Virus genome (UHGV): UHGV-0283826
Origin: a virus
Length of the DNA: 36,933 nt
Direction: 5' to 3' (one strand)
The first letter of the stretch is position 1, and each line of letters starts with the position of its first letter. This document shows, piece by piece, positions 9,043-14,811 of this stretch. Both the position numbers and the translations under genes were made by a program. The notes under the pieces are model-generated. The model saw nothing but the letters and a program-made list of their open reading frames with translations. It had not been told where the DNA came from and ran no database searches.

Positions 9043-10105
9043 GTTAATCATTGATGTTAGCTATCATAATGGAGTGATAAATTGGGAAAAAGTAAAAGTA
9101 TCCGGTTGTGCAGGAGCTATTCTTAGATGCGGATATGGAGATGATATCACATCACAGGACGATAAGCAGTGGATTCGTAACCTTTCAGAATGTGAAAGAC
9201 TTGGTATTCCGGTAGGAGCATATCTGTACAGCTATGCCACTTCTGACAGACAGGCACAGAGCGAACTTGATCATATTCTTAGATTGATTAAAGGTCATAC
9301 TTTCCAGTTACCAATCTTCCTTGATGTTGAAGAACCGGGAACACAGCACTATGCTCCTAGATGTTGTGAGATTGTCTGTGAAGGACTCAAGGCTAATGGT
9401 TATGTTCCTGGAATCTATGCTTCACTGAGCTGGTTCAATAACTATCTCGGAAATGTTCGTGGAAAGTATGTTGAGTGGATGGCAAGATACAAGAATCTTC
9501 CGGAAGATACATACAAAGACCAGTATGCTATTTGGCAGTATTCCTCCGACGGTCATGTAGATGGAGTTAACGGAAGAGTTGATGTCAACTATTGCTACAT
9601 GGAATTTGGCGAAAGCGCTGCACCAGTAACACCGTCAGCACCTTCTAAGCCAGCAGAGAAGAAAGACTTAGGACAGGTCGATATTACATATCAGGCTTTC
9701 ACGGATAGATGGTGGCCACCAGTAACCAATAAAGCTGATTGGGCTGGAAAAGGTGATAATGTATCGATCAAGTGGCTTGCAATCAAGGTAAGCAAAGGAA
9801 GCATTCGCTGTCGAGTATACACAAGAAAGAATGGTTGGTTGCCATATCTTACATTCGGCAACAGCTATGACTTGAACGATAAGAAGAACGGAATCCTCGG
9901 AGATGGTTCGGAGATTCTTGCTATCGAGCTGTACTACATCACACCAGATGGATATAAGTACAAGATGGTCCACTACAGAGTTTCTGTACAGAACAATCCT
10001 AACTTCTACGCAGATCAGATCGATACACTGAAAGCAAGTGGCATGGACGGATTCGCTGGAGATAAGAAGAGATTCGTGGATAAGTTCCAATCGTGGATTG
10101 AGTAA
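9035..10105 (+). CDS. Endolysin: GH25 muramidase (Cpl-1-like) catalytic domain plus C-terminal ~150-aa putative cell-wall-binding domain of unrecognised type
   Basis: LIIDVSYHNGVINWEKVKVSGCAGAILRCGYG is the classic GH25 N-terminus. SD GAAGGTGG lies 6 nt upstream of ATG 9035. Confidence 0.85.
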   Translation: MSKLIIDVSYHNGVINWEKVKVSGCAGAILRCGYGDDITSQDDKQWIRNLSECERLGIPVGAYLYSYATSDRQAQSELDHILRLIKGHTFQLPIFLDVEEPGTQHYAPRCCEIVCEGLKANGYVPGIYASLSWFNNYLGNVRGKYVEWMARYKNLPEDTYKDQYAIWQYSSDGHVDGVNGRVDVNYCYMEFGESAAPVTPSAPSKPAEKKDLGQVDITYQAFTDRWWPPVTNKADWAGKGDNVSIKWLAIKVSKGSIRCRVYTRKNGWLPYLTFGNSYDLNDKKNGILGDGSEILAIELYYITPDGYKYKMVHYRVSVQNNPNFYADQIDTLKASGMDGFAGDKKRFVDKFQSWIE

Positions 10106-10111
10106 AAAGAT

Positions 10112-10143
10112 GCCCCAGAGCAATTCGCTTTGGGGCTTTAATA
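10112..10143 (+). terminator. Rho-independent terminator after the lysis cassette
   Basis: GCCCCAGAG (10112..10120) - 7-nt loop - CTTTGGGGC (10128..10136) followed by TTTAATATT. Confidence 0.7.
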
Positions 10144-10214
10144 TTGTATCATCTTTTTGCGCAGTATTTTGATAGAAGAAAATACGAGTTCCTTCATATT
10201 ATTATGCGATTCAT

Positions 10215-10258
10215 TTCCAAAAGAATTGGGATAAAGAATAATCCCGTTTCTTTTGGAA
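10215..10258. repeat. 44-bp nested palindrome 16 bp from the integrase stop (candidate attP or recombinase site)
   Basis: TTCCAAAAGAA (10215..10225) and TTCTTTTGGAA (10248..10258) are perfect 11-bp inverted repeats. They enclose TGGGAT...ATCCC. No flanking U-tract on either strand. Confidence 0.4.
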
Positions 10259-10273
10259 ATAACAAAAAACCCT

Positions 10274-11824
10274 TTATTTGCGCGGAATTCTGGGCTTTAT
10301 TGTCAATTCAAAGTTAGGCTCATTCAGATGACCGCGCTTATTTTTCGTTAATTTCTTGTATTCTATAGATTCTATGAGTAATTTCAACAATCTGTTGCGT
10401 TCCGGAATAGATAAATCCCAATAACAGGAAAGCAGATCTTCACAAGCCGGCAGGAACTGTTCTATATTGGCTTCTCTTTGGCGTTCCTTGTCAAGTTCGA
10501 GTTTCAGCTGGGCAACGTTTGATTCAGCTTCAGAGATTCGGTTTTGTAAACTGTCAGATCGCTCAAGAAAGACTTCTGTCGAGTAGACACCTTGTTCAAG
10601 CAGATCATACATGGTTCCCTTTTGCCGTAGAAGTTGATCGAGTGTCTGTTGAGCTGATTCCAAAAGAACTTCTTTTTCCGGAATAAGACTCTTGGTTGGC
10701 ATATGACCACTCAGACGATATCCTTCAACCCAGTCAGAAAGCGCGTTATAAACTTCTCGCTCAACAAGATCCAAAGGGCTGCCAATGGTAGGACAATCAT
10801 ATGTACTGCACAACATCAGATCATAAGGAACACGACTTGCAGTTCCGGAAGGCGGCCGGCGAATCATTTTCTTTTTGCACTCACTACAGATAATGATTCC
10901 TGCAAGTGGATTTTTGACAATGTTAGAACCGGCAGGCTTCGGGGATCCACAGCCAAGATAACTTTGAGCTTCTGCAAATACATCGTGATCGATCAAGCGC
11001 GGATGCCGGCCGGAAACAATGGTATAGTCATTGGTTCTCGGACGTGTGGTTGTGAGAACGCCATTTTCAATTGTTCTGACCACTTTTCGCTCACCGATCT
11101 TAACGCATTGATCGTACACAACATTAGAGAGGATTCCACGGACGGTGCTCTCACTCCAAAGTTTGGAATTACGCGGCTTTGTACCGTAACTGTTTAAAGT
11201 ACGAGTAATCGACCGGATACCGACACGTTCCGGACCGGTAAACATAGAAAAGATAAGCCGCACAACAGGAGCCTCGTTTTCATCAAAAGCAAGAGTCCAT
11301 CCTTTCTCTTTTTCAAGTTTCACTCTCCGGAAACCGTATGGTGCGGAGTTGTATGGCCACTTTCCTTCAGAGATAGCGGCATAACGTCCATTCTGCATCC
11401 TGCGCTTAATCGTCTTATATTCACGACGACTCATAAATAATCCAAACTCAAAATACTCTTCATCGAATTCATTAGCCGGATCATAGGTTTTGGAAGGAGT
11501 GATGATTAGTGTGTTGGAATACTGGAAAGCTCTCTGTACAACTCCCTGATCGATCGTATCACCACGAGCAAGACGTTCTACTTCCATAACAAGCACACCG
11601 TCCCAAAGGTTCTGTTCTACTTCGTGGAGTAACTGTTGCATAACAGGACGCGCAGCTATAGTTTCTCCGGACACAACTTCTCGGTAAATATTGCTGATAA
11701 TAAGGTTGTTTTTCTTAGCAAGAGAGAGAAGTGCACGTTCGTGTCTGGCAAGAGTTTCCCCTTCACCATGCTGCTCGGCTTCAAGATCCTTTCTTGATTT
11801 CCTCAAATAAATACAATACGACAT
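10274..11824 (-). CDS. int: Large serine recombinase (phage integrase)
   Basis: N-terminal resolvase catalytic domain (YLRKSRKD...), recombinase domain, Cys-rich zinc ribbon (C..C...C) and C-terminal coiled coil. ATG at 11824 lies 6 nt after a GGAGGTG SD. Confidence 0.9.
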   Translation of the reverse strand: MSYCIYLRKSRKDLEAEQHGEGETLARHERALLSLAKKNNLIISNIYREVVSGETIAARPVMQQLLHEVEQNLWDGVLVMEVERLARGDTIDQGVVQRAFQYSNTLIITPSKTYDPANEFDEEYFEFGLFMSRREYKTIKRRMQNGRYAAISEGKWPYNSAPYGFRRVKLEKEKGWTLAFDENEAPVVRLIFSMFTGPERVGIRSITRTLNSYGTKPRNSKLWSESTVRGILSNVVYDQCVKIGERKVVRTIENGVLTTTRPRTNDYTIVSGRHPRLIDHDVFAEAQSYLGCGSPKPAGSNIVKNPLAGIIICSECKKKMIRRPPSGTASRVPYDLMLCSTYDCPTIGSPLDLVEREVYNALSDWVEGYRLSGHMPTKSLIPEKEVLLESAQQTLDQLLRQKGTMYDLLEQGVYSTEVFLERSDSLQNRISEAESNVAQLKLELDKERQREANIEQFLPACEDLLSCYWDLSIPERNRLLKLLIESIEYKKLTKNKRGHLNEPNFELTIKPRIPRK

Positions 11825-11930: not shown

Positions 11931-12024
11931 GGTAAGACAGTATCTCTTCGGAGTTACTAAAGCACATTGGAGTGTGCTTCCCCAGTTGACCGTTCCTGTT
12001 GGCGCAGGAGCGGTTTTTTATTTT
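11931..12024 (+). ncRNA. Candidate ~95-nt small RNA between int and the K+ channel gene (promoter to intrinsic terminator, no ORF)
   Basis: Transcript predicted from the promoter at 11895..11923 to the terminator at 11990..12024. It contains the palindrome GCACATTGGAGTGTGC (11962..11977). The only ORF here (11914..12129) has no SD and is cut by the terminator. Confidence 0.3.
11990..12024 (+). terminator. Rho-independent terminator (plus-strand orientation); the T-tract overlaps the stop of the minus-strand channel gene
   Basis: CCGTTCCTG (11990..11998) - TTGGCG - CAGGAGCGG (12005..12013) followed by TTTTTTATTTT. Confidence 0.55.
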
Positions 12025-12787
12025 AGTTGTTATGACTATTTCCTTCATGAAGAAAATTTAATGTATCGCATATCGTTTTTAAATCATCATCTGAAAGATC
12101 GTCAAATTTGTCTAGCTGTTCTTGAATAGATTTAATTAGCTTATCACGAGAGGTTTCGGCCTTCTGATCATGCTTTTGAAAAAACAGGGCAGTGATCGTA
12201 CTTGTAAGAGATCCAATCAAACCGATTCCGACAATCATCAAAACAGTTGCTATGATTCTTCCGGGAATAGTTGATGGTGAGATATCTCCGTATCCAACAG
12301 TTGTCGCTGTGACAAAGCTCCACCAAAATCCGTCTGCAAAGCTCATACATTCCGCGTAATGAATAGAAACTCCACCAATCAGGATACAGATCAGCGTTGC
12401 TCCGACCATATATTTGAAACCATTCAGATCAAAGAAGAACTTCACACGCTTGTAAAGTCTTGCAAATCGTGCAGATGCTTTTGCGAGTTTTAGGAGTTTT
12501 AGCATTTTGAAAATTTTGAAAACCCTAAACACTTTAAACAGAGAATTAAATGGAATAATAGCGATCAGATCCAGCACATTATTCCGGAAGAACTCTTTTT
12601 TATTTTTGGCAATCAGAAATCGTAAAGCATAGTCTGCAATGAATATCACATTAATTGCAAAGTCAATATTACGTTGAACAGCAGAGCAACCAGTTGTCAT
12701 GTCGCAGATTGCAAAATAGACGGCTATGATTGCAAGACCACTGAAAATAAAATCATACAGCAGTAAAAAACGGTCTTTTTGTTTCAT
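12023..12787 (-). CDS. Voltage-gated K+ channel (6-TM Kv-type: S4 voltage sensor plus TVGYGD pore)
   Basis: S4-like FRVFKIFKMLKLLKLAKASARFARLYKR with basic residues every third position. Canonical K+ selectivity filter TATTVGYGD. Six hydrophobic segments. Acidic C-terminal tail. Confidence 0.8.
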   Translation of the reverse strand: MKQKDRFLLLYDFIFSGLAIIAVYFAICDMTTGCSAVQRNIDFAINVIFIADYALRFLIAKNKKEFFRNNVLDLIAIIPFNSLFKVFRVFKIFKMLKLLKLAKASARFARLYKRVKFFFDLNGFKYMVGATLICILIGGVSIHYAECMSFADGFWWSFVTATTVGYGDISPSTIPGRIIATVLMIVGIGLIGSLTSTITALFFQKHDQKAETSRDKLIKSIQEQLDKFDDLSDDDLKTICDTLNFLHEGNSHNN

Positions 12788-12811
12788 TTAGAAAACCTTT
12801 CATTCTTTCTA

Positions 12812-14080
12812 TCAAGGATGACAATGACCACAAGGTGAATAACCTTGATTGATCAAATCATCTTTAGTTCCTTCATATGCCCAGTAATTTTCTGGAGAAA
12901 TTTTATCTACATCCCTACAATTTGGAAGATGAAATTTTTTAGTAGAGGTATTCACAACATAAGAAGAAGCTTGAGGTTCTTGTGTTTGCTGGACAACAGC
13001 TGGTTGATTGGATTCTTCGGCAGCAGCTTCCTCAGCAGCTTGTTGAGCTTCGAGCTCTGCCTGCCTTGCAGCTTCTGCTTCAGCTTGTGCTTGAGCTTCA
13101 GCGGCGGCAATAGCAGCCTTGTCTTCAACATTGAAAGTCAGCGAATTACTTTCAATGCCATCACATGAAACAGTGATTATATAAGAACCAGCTTCACTTG
13201 CTGAAAATGTAAGGTTTCCGTTATCATCAGAAGCAAAGATGCATTCGGATCCATTTAAAGTCAGGTTGTCGATATTGGCATCAGATGGCGTAACAGTAAG
13301 TGTTACGGGAACTTCTGTATTGATATCATAAATCTGATCGGTATCAGCTGAAATGCTCAAACTTTCAAGAGCTGCAACTACTGGTTTTGTGTCCTCAACT
13401 TTTTCTACATTCTTTTCCGTATTCTTATCACCGGAATCGGTGCATGATGAAATAGCTCCGATCACAAGGAAGAAAAGAACGACAGCTGTAAGGCATCCAC
13501 ATCCCATCTTCTTTTTGGATGGCTTATCATTTATATCCGGAGAGGTACCTGAAAATGTAGATGAACCGAAATTACTTTCGAATGAAAGTCGTTTTTTAAT
13601 CTCTTTTGAATAGGTGATTGACATTGCAAGTGTGATACCGCCGAAAATCAAACAAATTACTGTTGCCAAAGCACTTCCACCGGCGAAACCGATTAGCGCA
13701 ACGAAAAACAGAAAAGCGGACAGTATCGCAGAGATTATTTTATAGCGCTTCAAAGAATCCGTTGTTAATTTATCAAGCGACGCGCTTGAACCATCGGCAA
13801 CATTATTCTGAAAAGAAAGGTCTTCCGTAAGGACTGGATCTAAGTTGTCTGTAGAAATCCTTTTATGACTGGATGGTTTTTTACTACCAGATCCACCACC
13901 GGAAGAAGTAGTGTAGTATGCGCCGGTACCTGGAATGCCGACAGATGTTGTTTTCTTTCCAGAAGAGCTATATGTTTTGTGAACACCTTTTCCACCAAAC
14001 GTTACACTTGTACTTTTCTTGTTCAAGTTTACTTTTACTCCAGGAGCAACCTTGAAACTTTTTCTAAATCTTAATCCCAT
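12812..14080 (-). CDS. Membrane protein: N-terminal DUF4236, 3 TM helices, Ig-like (Big) domain, Ala/Glu/Gln-rich coiled coil, C-terminal Ada-like Zn-binding domain
   Basis: ATG at 14080 with a GAGGG SD. MGLRFRKSFKVAPGVKVNLNKKS matches the DUF4236 N-terminus. C-terminal FHLPNC...NYWAYEGTKDDLINQGYSPCGHCHP matches the Ada metal-binding pattern (YHxPxC...GYxPCxxCxP). Its stop lies 24 bp upstream of the channel gene start. Confidence 0.65.
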   Translation of the reverse strand: MGLRFRKSFKVAPGVKVNLNKKSTSVTFGGKGVHKTYSSSGKKTTSVGIPGTGAYYTTSSGGGSGSKKPSSHKRISTDNLDPVLTEDLSFQNNVADGSSASLDKLTTDSLKRYKIISAILSAFLFFVALIGFAGGSALATVICLIFGGITLAMSITYSKEIKKRLSFESNFGSSTFSGTSPDINDKPSKKKMGCGCLTAVVLFFLVIGAISSCTDSGDKNTEKNVEKVEDTKPVVAALESLSISADTDQIYDINTEVPVTLTVTPSDANIDNLTLNGSECIFASDDNGNLTFSASEAGSYIITVSCDGIESNSLTFNVEDKAAIAAAEAQAQAEAEAARQAELEAQQAAEEAAAEESNQPAVVQQTQEPQASSYVVNTSTKKFHLPNCRDVDKISPENYWAYEGTKDDLINQGYSPCGHCHP

Positions 14081-14161: not shown

Positions 14162-14305
14162 CTTTCCTAATAATAGCAATCCCTAAAGTTCCTAAGTGAA
14201 AAAGAACAGATGTTCGATAAAACATTGATTTCTATATACAAATGTTGTATGATGAAATCAAGGAATTTCGAAGAGCGTTCTTGCTGGGAACGGAGGGATA
14301 ACATA

Positions 14306-14428
14306 ATGAACAATGTATCTAAACAACTTATCATAGGAATGGTGAAGAAAATTGACGATTCAGATGAAAAATTTCTTCGCCAGCTCTACACCATCTTAAA
14401 AAGACATTTAGAAAGAAGGAAGCATTAG
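14306..14428 (+). CDS. Small hypothetical protein (40 aa) convergent with the repressor gene
   Basis: ATG at 14306, 8 nt after a GGAGGG SD. Ends inside the terminator hairpin. Basic and helical. Confidence 0.3.
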   Translation: MNNVSKQLIIGMVKKIDDSDEKFLRQLYTILKRHLERRKH

Positions 14429-14441
14429 CTTCCTTTTTTTA
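14418..14441. terminator. Bidirectional terminator hairpin whose loop contains the overlapping stop codons of two convergent genes
   Basis: GGAAGC - ATTA - GCTTCC followed by TTTTTTT on the plus strand. The plus stop TAG (14426..14428) and the minus stop TAA (14425..14427) both sit in the loop. Confidence 0.55.
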
Positions 14442-14811
14442 TGTTCTCCCGCAACTTGGCACTGAAATCACGGATTACTTCCTTTGATTTAGGAGACAAT
14501 TCATGATATGTGTGCATGATTTCCTTAATCAACTTATATAAATCATTATCACTGTCTTCCAGCAATTCAGATACATAAGCAGCTTCTTCATCTTCTTCAG
14601 GAAGCTCCAAGAACATATCACCAGCTCCAGATCGGAGCCATTCCTCATTAACATTGAATGTTTTGCATATAAGAGCTATTGCGGAATCACTTGGAATGCT
14701 ACGTCCCATTTCATAAGTGGCTACAGTATTACGTTTAACTTTTATTGATTCTGCGAACTCTTGTTGTGTCAGCTTTAGAACTTTTCGAAGTTCTTTAATA
14801 CGTTCGTTCAT
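14425..14811 (-). CDS. XRE-family HTH transcriptional repressor (CI-like lysogeny repressor, no peptidase domain)
   Basis: N-terminal HTH_3 motif (LRKVLKLTQQEFAESIKVKRNTVATYEMGRSIP) and an acidic C-terminus. Divergent from the early promoter. Confidence 0.8.
   Translation of the reverse strand: MNERIKELRKVLKLTQQEFAESIKVKRNTVATYEMGRSIPSDSAIALICKTFNVNEEWLRSGAGDMFLELPEEDEEAAYVSELLEDSDNDLYKLIKEIMHTYHELSPKSKEVIRDFSAKLRENIKKGS

Follow-up and report, generated by a model that had tools for sequence, protein, structure and literature searches.

A predicted voltage-gated potassium channel and a DUF4236 membrane protein assort independently in the hypervariable cargo slot of a human-gut temperate phage

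Virus genome UHGV-0283826 (36,933 nt; "the window", meaning the whole stretch of DNA that was analysed) carries two co-oriented genes between a large serine integrase gene (int) and a gene for a CI-like repressor. One encodes a membrane protein that begins with a DUF4236 domain, and the other a six-transmembrane (6-TM) voltage-gated potassium (Kv) channel. The reading we favour, with somewhat better than even confidence, is that these are two autonomous, separately exchangeable membrane cargo cassettes in a hypervariable slot of a temperate Mediterraneibacter faecis phage. Sibling prophages that carry one gene without the other give good support to their independence, and the slot they share is hypervariable and undergoing cassette shuffling. 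Kv channels emerge from this analysis as a recurrent cargo of temperate-phage lysogeny modules, here in a very common human-gut commensal.

A first-pass annotation of the window had placed the two genes 24 bp apart between int and the repressor, in a cargo ("moron") slot with no role in the phage life cycle, and had recognised the downstream gene as a 6-TM Kv channel with an S4 voltage sensor and a TVGYGD selectivity filter. The coordinates and flanks proved correct (Table 1), neither gene resembles a replication, morphogenesis or lysis function, and the channel assignment was upheld by an Ion_trans match, by matches to KvLm and KvAP, and by the basic residues of S4. The annotation's further proposals, on the architecture of the upstream protein and on a joint function of the pair, fared less uniformly and are taken up where the evidence on them is given.

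Independent assortment in sibling prophages

Sibling prophages encode integrases that are 97-99% identical at the amino acid level, and those seen integrated (forms A and B) share the same cotJC-side junction. Their slots hold different contents. Form A, to which the window belongs together with L025 and L004-L019, has the DUF4236 gene and the channel gene. Form B (L020-L024) has a DUF4236 gene, 83% identical in amino acid sequence to that of the window, and no channel, while in form C (L026-L038) a channel with 82% amino acid identity is followed by a gene for an unrelated 206-aa protein, and none of these loci has DUF4236. Form A is less common than forms B and C: the form B allele of the DUF4236 protein (P0053) was present on 533 metagenome contigs as against 125 for the window allele, and the form C channel allele on 795 as against 285.

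The borders of the exchanged blocks can be placed on the window. Alignment with form B is lost at 12970 and 12037, the first of these being exactly the start of the C-terminal Zn module of the DUF4236 protein, and alignment with form C at 14202 and 12026. Between forms, nucleotide identity is 79.5% for the channel gene and about 80-90% for the cargo genes overall, as against 96-97% for the flanks. The repressor varies as well. Six loci from IMG/VR (L029, L030, L031, L203, L204 and L207) combine the same integrase and channel backbone with another repressor allele (43-51% amino acid identity), which indicates that immunity and cargo are shuffled independently, and one of them (L030) has an additional gene for a 159-aa lipoprotein between repressor and channel.

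The 206-aa protein of form C (L026:6761-7381) starts with a very basic segment and ends in two TM helices, and its gene shares about 46 nt with the 3' end of the channel gene. Searches of Pfam and NCBIfam gave no significant match for it. The idea that it is a cryptic DUF4236 protein was rejected, as hhalign gave a probability of 0.3% and Pfam nothing; it may be another candidate partner of the channel or a separate cargo gene.

The potassium channel

Judged by its sequence, the product of the downstream gene is a complete Kv channel with all hallmarks present. The Pfam families Ion_trans (2.9e-17, residues 16-208) and Ion_trans_2 (1.5e-16) were matched, and the best matches in the PDB were the KvLm pore (4h33, 1e-19) and KvAP (6uwm, 4.5e-18; 1orq, 1.8e-16), followed by the eukaryotic channels Kv2.1, Kv1.2 and Shaker. 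Basic residues occupy every third position of S4 from K85 through R88, K91, K94, K97 and K100 to K103, and continue with R107, R110, K113 and R114. The residues F49-x-x-D52 of S2 and D73 of S3 are invariant in six phage homologues, and by analogy would be the charge-transfer centre. By homology, such a protein should form a homotetramer with a K+-selective pore gated by the S1-S4 voltage sensor. Gating polarity is not readable from homology because relatives differ in it, KvAP being activated by depolarisation and MVP by hyperpolarisation; the best NCBIfam match of the window channel, NF040645 (2.3e-10), is a model of a hyperpolarisation-activated archaeal channel, and the score lies far below its cut-off.

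The channel is a phage-borne addition to a known family, already present, unannotated, in PHROGs, where it matches phrog_7872 (2.3e-64) with family function unannotated, and in GenBank, where an identical protein from Ruminococcus sp. AF32-2AC (RGF64194.1) carries the label "Ion channel / voltage-gated potassium channel".

The DUF4236 protein

The upstream gene joins a DUF4236 anchor to a large predicted ectodomain. PF14020 matched with 67.1 bits against a cut-off of 27 and over profile positions 1-55 of 55. The N-terminal part of the protein has a net charge of +10 and the C-terminal part one of -25, and because of this bias the topology is predicted to be N-in, C-out; homologues in which the ectodomain is anchored as a lipoprotein agree with an external location of the C-terminal part. 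In an AlphaFold2 (AF2) model of the full protein the mean predicted local distance difference test (pLDDT) score was 48.8, and the DUF4236 domain, at 22-30, took no confident fold. A sequence search of the PDB with the DUF4236 protein returned no match.

An Ig-like (immunoglobulin-like) domain in the ectodomain is moderately supported by the model, as the top Foldseek matches of this region in the PDB were all of Ig, PKD, BIg or filamin type (E about 1e-3), and there were weak matches to Invasin_D3 and phrog_341. The helix that follows shows AEAE-repeat indels between alleles and a weak TolA-like match. The C-terminal module, with its HCCC ligand set, is putatively metal-binding and of Ada type, an assignment that was partly confirmed. 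Ada_Zn_binding (PF02805) reached 17.1 bits against a cut-off of 23 (E 0.0054) when the C-terminal 52 aa were searched alone, and gave no match at 0.01 with the full protein. Two diverged alleles agree in H384, C388, C417 and C420, and the first ligand is a histidine in all 150 motifs found among relatives, as against the Cys4 set of Ada with its xPxC ... PCxxC spacing. A lipoprotein relative with two copies of the module (P0173) matched E. coli Ada (NF011964) at positions 30-76 with 3e-6, a region in which the Zn-binding cysteines of Ada lie. The module also matched NCBI "sunset domain variant" ribosomal-protein models weakly. Searches of the literature for DUF4236 and "sunset domain" yielded nothing relevant and no paper that describes the module.

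When the ectodomain (residues 212-422) was searched against 1.84 billion representative proteins, 4707 relatives were found, most of which matched the Zn module alone; the module is thus a very widespread domain. Among relatives P0165-P0314 the module occurs in one to three copies, mostly at the C-terminus, and its carriers, which include a protein of metallo-beta-lactamase (MBL) fold (P0178), mostly have signal-peptide, lipoprotein or TM anchors. Twenty of the 150 best ectodomain relatives also begin with DUF4236; because others have the ectodomain attached to a lipoprotein anchor or a simple TM one, ectodomain and DUF4236 anchor are separable modules. The first-pass annotation had given the protein as DUF4236, three TM helices, an Ig-like domain, an Ala-rich coiled coil and an Ada-type Zn module. 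In essence this architecture is right. The DUF4236 domain and three TM helices were recovered, the Ig-like domain moderately so, and the Ala-rich segment as a predicted long helix; of the three families the annotation had named for the two genes, Ion_trans was matched, PF14020 scored above its cut-off and PF02805 fell short.

Related channels in other phages and genomes

A collection of channel loci made with tblastn and pattern scans comprised 156, which formed 83 clusters when grouped at 70% identity. The 24 viral clusters among them come from temperate phages of Firmicutes, where the channel lies in the lysogeny module, mostly in the interval between repressor/ImmA and integrase, co-oriented, with no fixed partner and in most cases with no DUF4236 gene. 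The neighbouring families in these clusters were HTH_3 (18), Phage_integrase (13), Peptidase_M78 (5), Peptidase_S24 (4), Abi_2 (2), DUF4236 (2) and Lipoprotein_Ltp (1), the last being an Ltp-domain protein beside the channel of a single phage, and PADLOC identified AbiD (2), PD-Lambda-1 and PDC-S22 among the neighbours. Three cultured phages, PLE2 (gp27) and JNU_P5 of Lactobacillus and Efs 1-1-1 of Enterococcus, have the channel between repressor/ImmA and integrase. The genomic clusters are mostly chromosomal and lie in unremarkable contexts. Literature searches on prophage Kv channels, K+ channels in abortive infection and ion transporters in lysogeny modules found nothing relevant.

Possible functions of the two genes

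Co-transcription of the two genes in the lysogen, in the direction of the repressor and int, is probable. As two autonomous cassettes, the first would be a surface protein with its basic DUF4236 domain in the cytoplasm, three TM helices, and an Ig-like domain, helical stalk and HCCC zinc module directed outward, and the second a KvLm/KvAP-type channel that would work without need of the DUF4236 protein. Within this reading the likeliest role, to which we give slightly less than even weight, is that both genes would protect the lysogen from other phages at the membrane. This role is proposed by analogy with the company of the slot, because its known occupants (Ltp and Sie-type proteins, AbiD and PD-Lambda-1) are protective. 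The channel would then move K+ when an incoming infection disturbs the membrane potential, and adsorption or DNA entry would be the stage at which the surface protein acts.

Several points weigh against seeing the genes as independent and protective cargo. A housekeeping K+ role borrowed by phages would be equally natural, since most members of the channel family are chromosomal. The remaining points concern neighbourhood. In 6 of the 83 clusters a Pfam-confirmed DUF4236 gene lay directly beside the channel and in the same orientation, and the 987 genes of the loci that are not adjacent to the channel included no DUF4236 gene (Fisher p = 7e-6). An independent metagenomic sample, a scan for relatives of a Synergistaceae pair that was used as an extra sample only, showed the adjacency at 3 of 80 loci (L278, L285 and L305) among the matches listed, which were 25-42% identical. 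At the positions immediately before and after the channel in 72 genomic loci, DUF4236 was counted four times, tied with redox and TrkA_C families and behind HTH_3 (6). Repeated juxtaposition of this kind hints at something beyond chance.

These counts are the starting point for another explanation, which we consider unlikely: that DUF4236 proteins are optional auxiliary or sensor subunits of Kv channels and that the window pair, although either gene can occur by itself, is a working module. Modulation of gating would then fall to the basic cytoplasmic DUF4236 domain or to the TM helices, and the ectodomain would be a sensor for something outside the cell. The six adjacency clusters are the window lineage, a viral one (L229), and those of Synergistaceae (L051), Acetivibrio (L053), Lachnospiraceae (L091) and Jeotgalibacillus (L093). 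Their channels are mutually only 33-45% identical, both gene orders occur and the DUF4236 C-termini differ, which together argue that the juxtaposition arose repeatedly and speak for a partnership of independent origins. The same diversity also tells against one, as the C-terminal parts of the partners share nothing, being a 2-TM segment only, a TM2 domain (L091), a TPR domain (L053), a part with no TM, or the Ig/Zn ectodomain. In every pair the two genes run in the same direction, and the gap is small in most (-44 to 27 nt, as against 92 nt in L091), but two of the adjacent channels are frameshifted (L091 and L093). Some contexts look defence-like (TIR_2 and an integrase after the channel at L051, a protein kinase upstream at L093), and the stretch in which forms A and B differ starts precisely with the Zn module and takes in the channel. 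Against this, each DUF4236-adjacent channel has nearer relatives without DUF4236 (45-57% identical, 82% for that of the window), and no pair is retained among nearest relatives; the one-gene forms B and C outnumber form A; and no channel was found within 4 kb of the DUF4236 gene at any of 80 phage DUF4236 loci. A Zn-module gene upstream of a channel was found at none of the other channel loci.

The background of the slot was gauged with 80 ImmA-selected lysogeny modules (36 clusters), in which DUF4236 occurred in one cluster and a channel in one, never together; this control was partly seeded by the study's own loci, and both positives derived from those seeds. Because the slot background (0-8%) overlaps the observed 4-8%, co-location in a slot and a functional link are not separable. 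The first-pass annotation had suggested a sensor/effector unit and looked to co-occurrence in other prophages and defence islands. Co-occurrence was indeed found, in five further clusters and three metagenomic loci (one of them the intact form of one of the clusters), yet it is sporadic and not kept in nearer relatives, and with forms B and C each carrying one gene without the other the idea of such a unit is mostly unsupported. What had been an appealing call of a new two-gene defence system is thereby corrected, and what is left of it is a sporadic but repeated DUF4236-Kv adjacency. A narrower variant, in which the channel travels with the Zn-module gene, was rejected after a motif scan of all loci, which found the module only in the window lineage and at one unrelated DUF4236 locus.

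Among the individual pairs, the Synergistaceae metagenome-assembled genome (L051:1109-4474) encodes a DUF4236-2TM protein (118 aa), a Kv channel and a TIR_2 protein with gaps of 21 and 0 nt; a tyrosine integrase lies on the opposite strand, beside smpB, and the arrangement looks like a defence island. At L093 the pair is followed by an SNase-Excalibur protein.

Lysogenic conversion is a serious rival explanation, though one that we likewise regard as unlikely. An extra K+ pathway, serving uptake or release, osmotic or pH adaptation or the buffering of membrane potential, would raise host fitness in the K+-rich colon independently of phages. Such a role fits the chromosomal location and plain contexts of most of the 83 channel clusters, with TrkA_N/TrkA_C in 3-4 of the neighbours, and the abundance of the phage in human gut metagenomes, where it is very common; an inward, uptake-type function would be possible in view of the NF040645 match, the best in NCBIfam though far below its cut-off. 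It fits less well with the other occupants of the phage channel slot, which are exclusion and abortive-infection genes, with the abundance of form B, which makes the channel dispensable, and with the phage itself, where no linkage to osmotic or K+ regulators was seen. A role in the phage cycle, by tuning holin triggering and lysis timing or by sensing host energisation for the induction decision, is very improbable: holin triggering is sensitive to membrane potential, and in the circular genome only attP and int separate the channel from the lysis cassette (holin and GH25 endolysin), but the cargo genes lie on the opposite strand to the lysis genes, co-oriented with repressor and int, and among the siblings form B goes through its cycle with no channel and form C with no DUF4236 gene.

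Returning to separately exchangeable cargo, a broader proposal can be built on it, which we offer as a conjecture with little weight: prophage Kv channels might form an undescribed class of lysogen-expressed, membrane-potential-based superinfection protection, widespread in Firmicutes, with DUF4236 proteins as recurrent facultative sensor or auxiliary partners. To our knowledge bacterial voltage-gated K+ channels, although structural and biophysical classics, have a cellular role that is largely unknown, and prophage channels acting in superinfection protection would provide the first clear physiological role for one. Whether the channel serves anti-phage protection or K+ physiology is directly testable, because near-isogenic prophages exist that have the pair, DUF4236 only, or the channel beside another partner.

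DUF4236 genes at other loci

The 80 phage DUF4236 loci (L120-L199) fall into 26 clusters of many architectures, with HTH_3 (12), integrases (6), Peptidase_M78 (4), Peptidase_S24 (3), Excalibur (3) and SNase (2) among the neighbours; DUF4236 proteins are thus cargo of such slots in their own right. The cultured M. gnavus phage RG-TP1 has the order repressor, DUF4236, integrase, as in form B. The domain is not confined to cargo slots, since in C. difficile phages it has a tail-module location; in phiCD111 (L276, record 10552-11193) the gene lies between Gp15-family and tape-measure genes. DUF4236 also recurs beside genes for secreted nucleases, which flank it in L093:7716-8897 and L305:412-1230 as well, and this association is at least as frequent as that with channels.

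Locus layout and host

Table 1. Coordinates of the two cargo genes, their parts and the borders of the slot in the window
Feature	Position	Strand	Residues or length	Description and basis
Channel gene	12023..12787	-	254 aa	6-TM voltage-gated K+ channel by sequence, KvLm/KvAP type, member of phrog_7872
Selectivity filter TVGYGD	12284..12301	-	163-168	read from sequence; T162-D168 invariant among aligned phage homologues
S4 voltage-sensor helix	12446..12535	-	85-114	aligns with KvAP S4 (phmmer)
Intergenic spacer	12788..12811	-	exactly 24 nt	weak ribosome-binding site AAAGG
DUF4236 gene	12812..14080	-	422 aa	DUF4236-anchored membrane protein, predicted N-in, 3 TM, C-out; PF14020, hydropathy/charge, AF2
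C-terminal HCCC Zn module	12815..12967	-	372-422	Ada-like, putative; pLDDT 83-89
Ala/Glu/Gln-rich long helix	13016..13120	-	321-355	length-polymorphic stalk; pLDDT 78-87
Ig-like beta-sandwich	13121..13360	-	about 241-320	predicted extracellular; AF2 pLDDT 57-70
TM3	13430..13516	-	189-217	hydropathy and AF2
Hydrophobic hairpin TM1+TM2	13604..13747	-	112-159	AF2 helices 100-133 and 137-168
DUF4236 domain	13910..14074	-	3-57	PF14020 2e-18; basic, Gly-rich, predicted cytoplasmic
Large serine integrase	10274..11824	-	516 aa	Resolvase, Recombinase and Zn_ribbon_recom; right slot border
GC-rich hairpin	11988..12015	+		12-bp stem then T-run, terminator-like on + strand; directly past channel stop codon
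Candidate sigma-70-like promoter	14330..14358	-		TCGTCA-17-TATGAT, upstream of cargo genes; consensus match only
CI-like HTH repressor	14425..14811	-		HTH_3, HTH_19 and weak Phage_CI_repr matches; left slot border

The start of the DUF4236 gene is preceded by GAGGG ahead of the ATG, and in all homologues the DUF4236 domain begins at residue 1; the integrase ATG at 11824 has GGAGG ahead of it, and the same 516-aa gene was called in metagenome contigs. Promoter and terminator prediction called neither in the spacer between the cargo genes. The GH25 endolysin gene ends at 10105 on the strand opposite to int and the cargo genes, from which we infer that the window is a circularly permuted phage genome with attP between endolysin and int.

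A further hairpin, at about 14405-14433, lies just past the repressor stop codon. No obvious + strand transcription was seen at the hairpin beyond the channel gene, which both right-hand breakpoints (12026 and 12037) adjoin. Between repressor and cargo genes there is a 72-aa open reading frame (14210-14428, +), convergent with the repressor, inside a block that is 97% conserved between forms A and C; a 40-aa gene is called there in some metagenome annotations.

Identical channel and DUF4236 proteins occur on hundreds of human-gut metagenome contigs. NCBI records of the identical proteins name Ruminococcus sp. AF32-2AC, and those of the sibling channel allele name Mediterraneibacter faecis and [Ruminococcus] torques L2-14. 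The prophage apparently resides inside the sporulation gene cotJC, with the attP region at 10106-10273 of the window, and beyond the integrase gene every integrated copy shows a 65-aa Mn_catalase (CotJC) fragment and then cotJB and cotJA (L004:12515-13349, L020:9022-9934). A search for the second cotJC junction by way of the endolysin returned only the circular phage contig. SPbeta, inserted in spsM, is likewise a gene-intervening prophage with a serine recombinase (PMC4191935). A megablast search of the region against cultured phages gave one marginal match of 8%.

Comparison with known systems

The first-pass annotation's remark that no described defence or exclusion system has this composition agrees with what we found in the literature searched and in PADLOC-DB 2.0.0, where the DUF4236 protein matched 0 families and the channel gave only a negligible match to LeoBC (E 0.0018, 59 residues). 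Its comparison with RexAB does not hold. Lambda RexAB and Sbash gp30/gp31 are two-gene ion-channel abortive-infection systems expressed from the lysogeny region, in which the membrane protein has been proposed to collapse the membrane potential on infection; RexA and gp30 are cytoplasmic DUF4747 proteins, RexB and gp31 have four TM helices, and both genes are needed together (PMC6426596). The window genes likewise lie in the lysogeny region of a prophage, but neither protein matches DUF4747, a 6-TM Kv channel stands in place of the 4-TM protein, and the two genes assort independently with no obligate co-inheritance; on these features the pair is not a RexAB-like system.

Position suggests a different parallel for the DUF4236 protein. 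Ltp of Streptococcus thermophilus phage TP-J34 and Sie2009-type proteins are membrane proteins or lipoproteins whose genes lie between integrase and repressor in temperate phages of Firmicutes and which expose a domain outside the cell. The DUF4236 protein resembles them in its place between int and repressor, its membrane anchor and its predicted external domain, and differs from Ltp in giving no PF07553 match and in having an ectodomain built of a predicted Ig-like domain and HCCC Zn module.

Virus-encoded K+ channels with a canonical filter are known from the chlorovirus Kcv (PMC12332018). Kcv is a 2-TM pore of about 94 aa without a voltage sensor, from a eukaryotic virus, in contrast to the 6-TM channel in the lysogeny module of the window. 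It acts from the virion membrane during entry. With KvAP of Aeropyrum pernix and MVP of Methanocaldococcus jannaschii the window channel shares S1-S6 homology over its full length (6uwm over residues 32-219), although it stays far under the equivalog cut-offs of these archaeal channels.

Experiments on KvLm of Listeria monocytogenes (Lmo2059; 4H33/4H37) showed a K+-selective channel that depolarisation activates, with a V1/2 of +154 mV in E. coli spheroplasts (PMC2151562). Like the window channel it has about 250 aa, six TM helices, the TVGYGD filter and a cytoplasmic C-terminal tail. The two differ in S4, where the window channel carries seven K/R spaced three residues apart, lysine in nearly every case, and in setting, as KvLm was described from the L. 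monocytogenes genome and the window channel is prophage cargo; identity to Listeria sequences is only about 35%. The "ion transporter" genes of PLE2, JNU_P5 and Enterococcus prophages lack an adjacent DUF4236 gene and have an ImmA protease, a lipoprotein or unknown proteins as neighbours, but they belong to the same family as the window channel (35-42% identity) and occupy the same slot.

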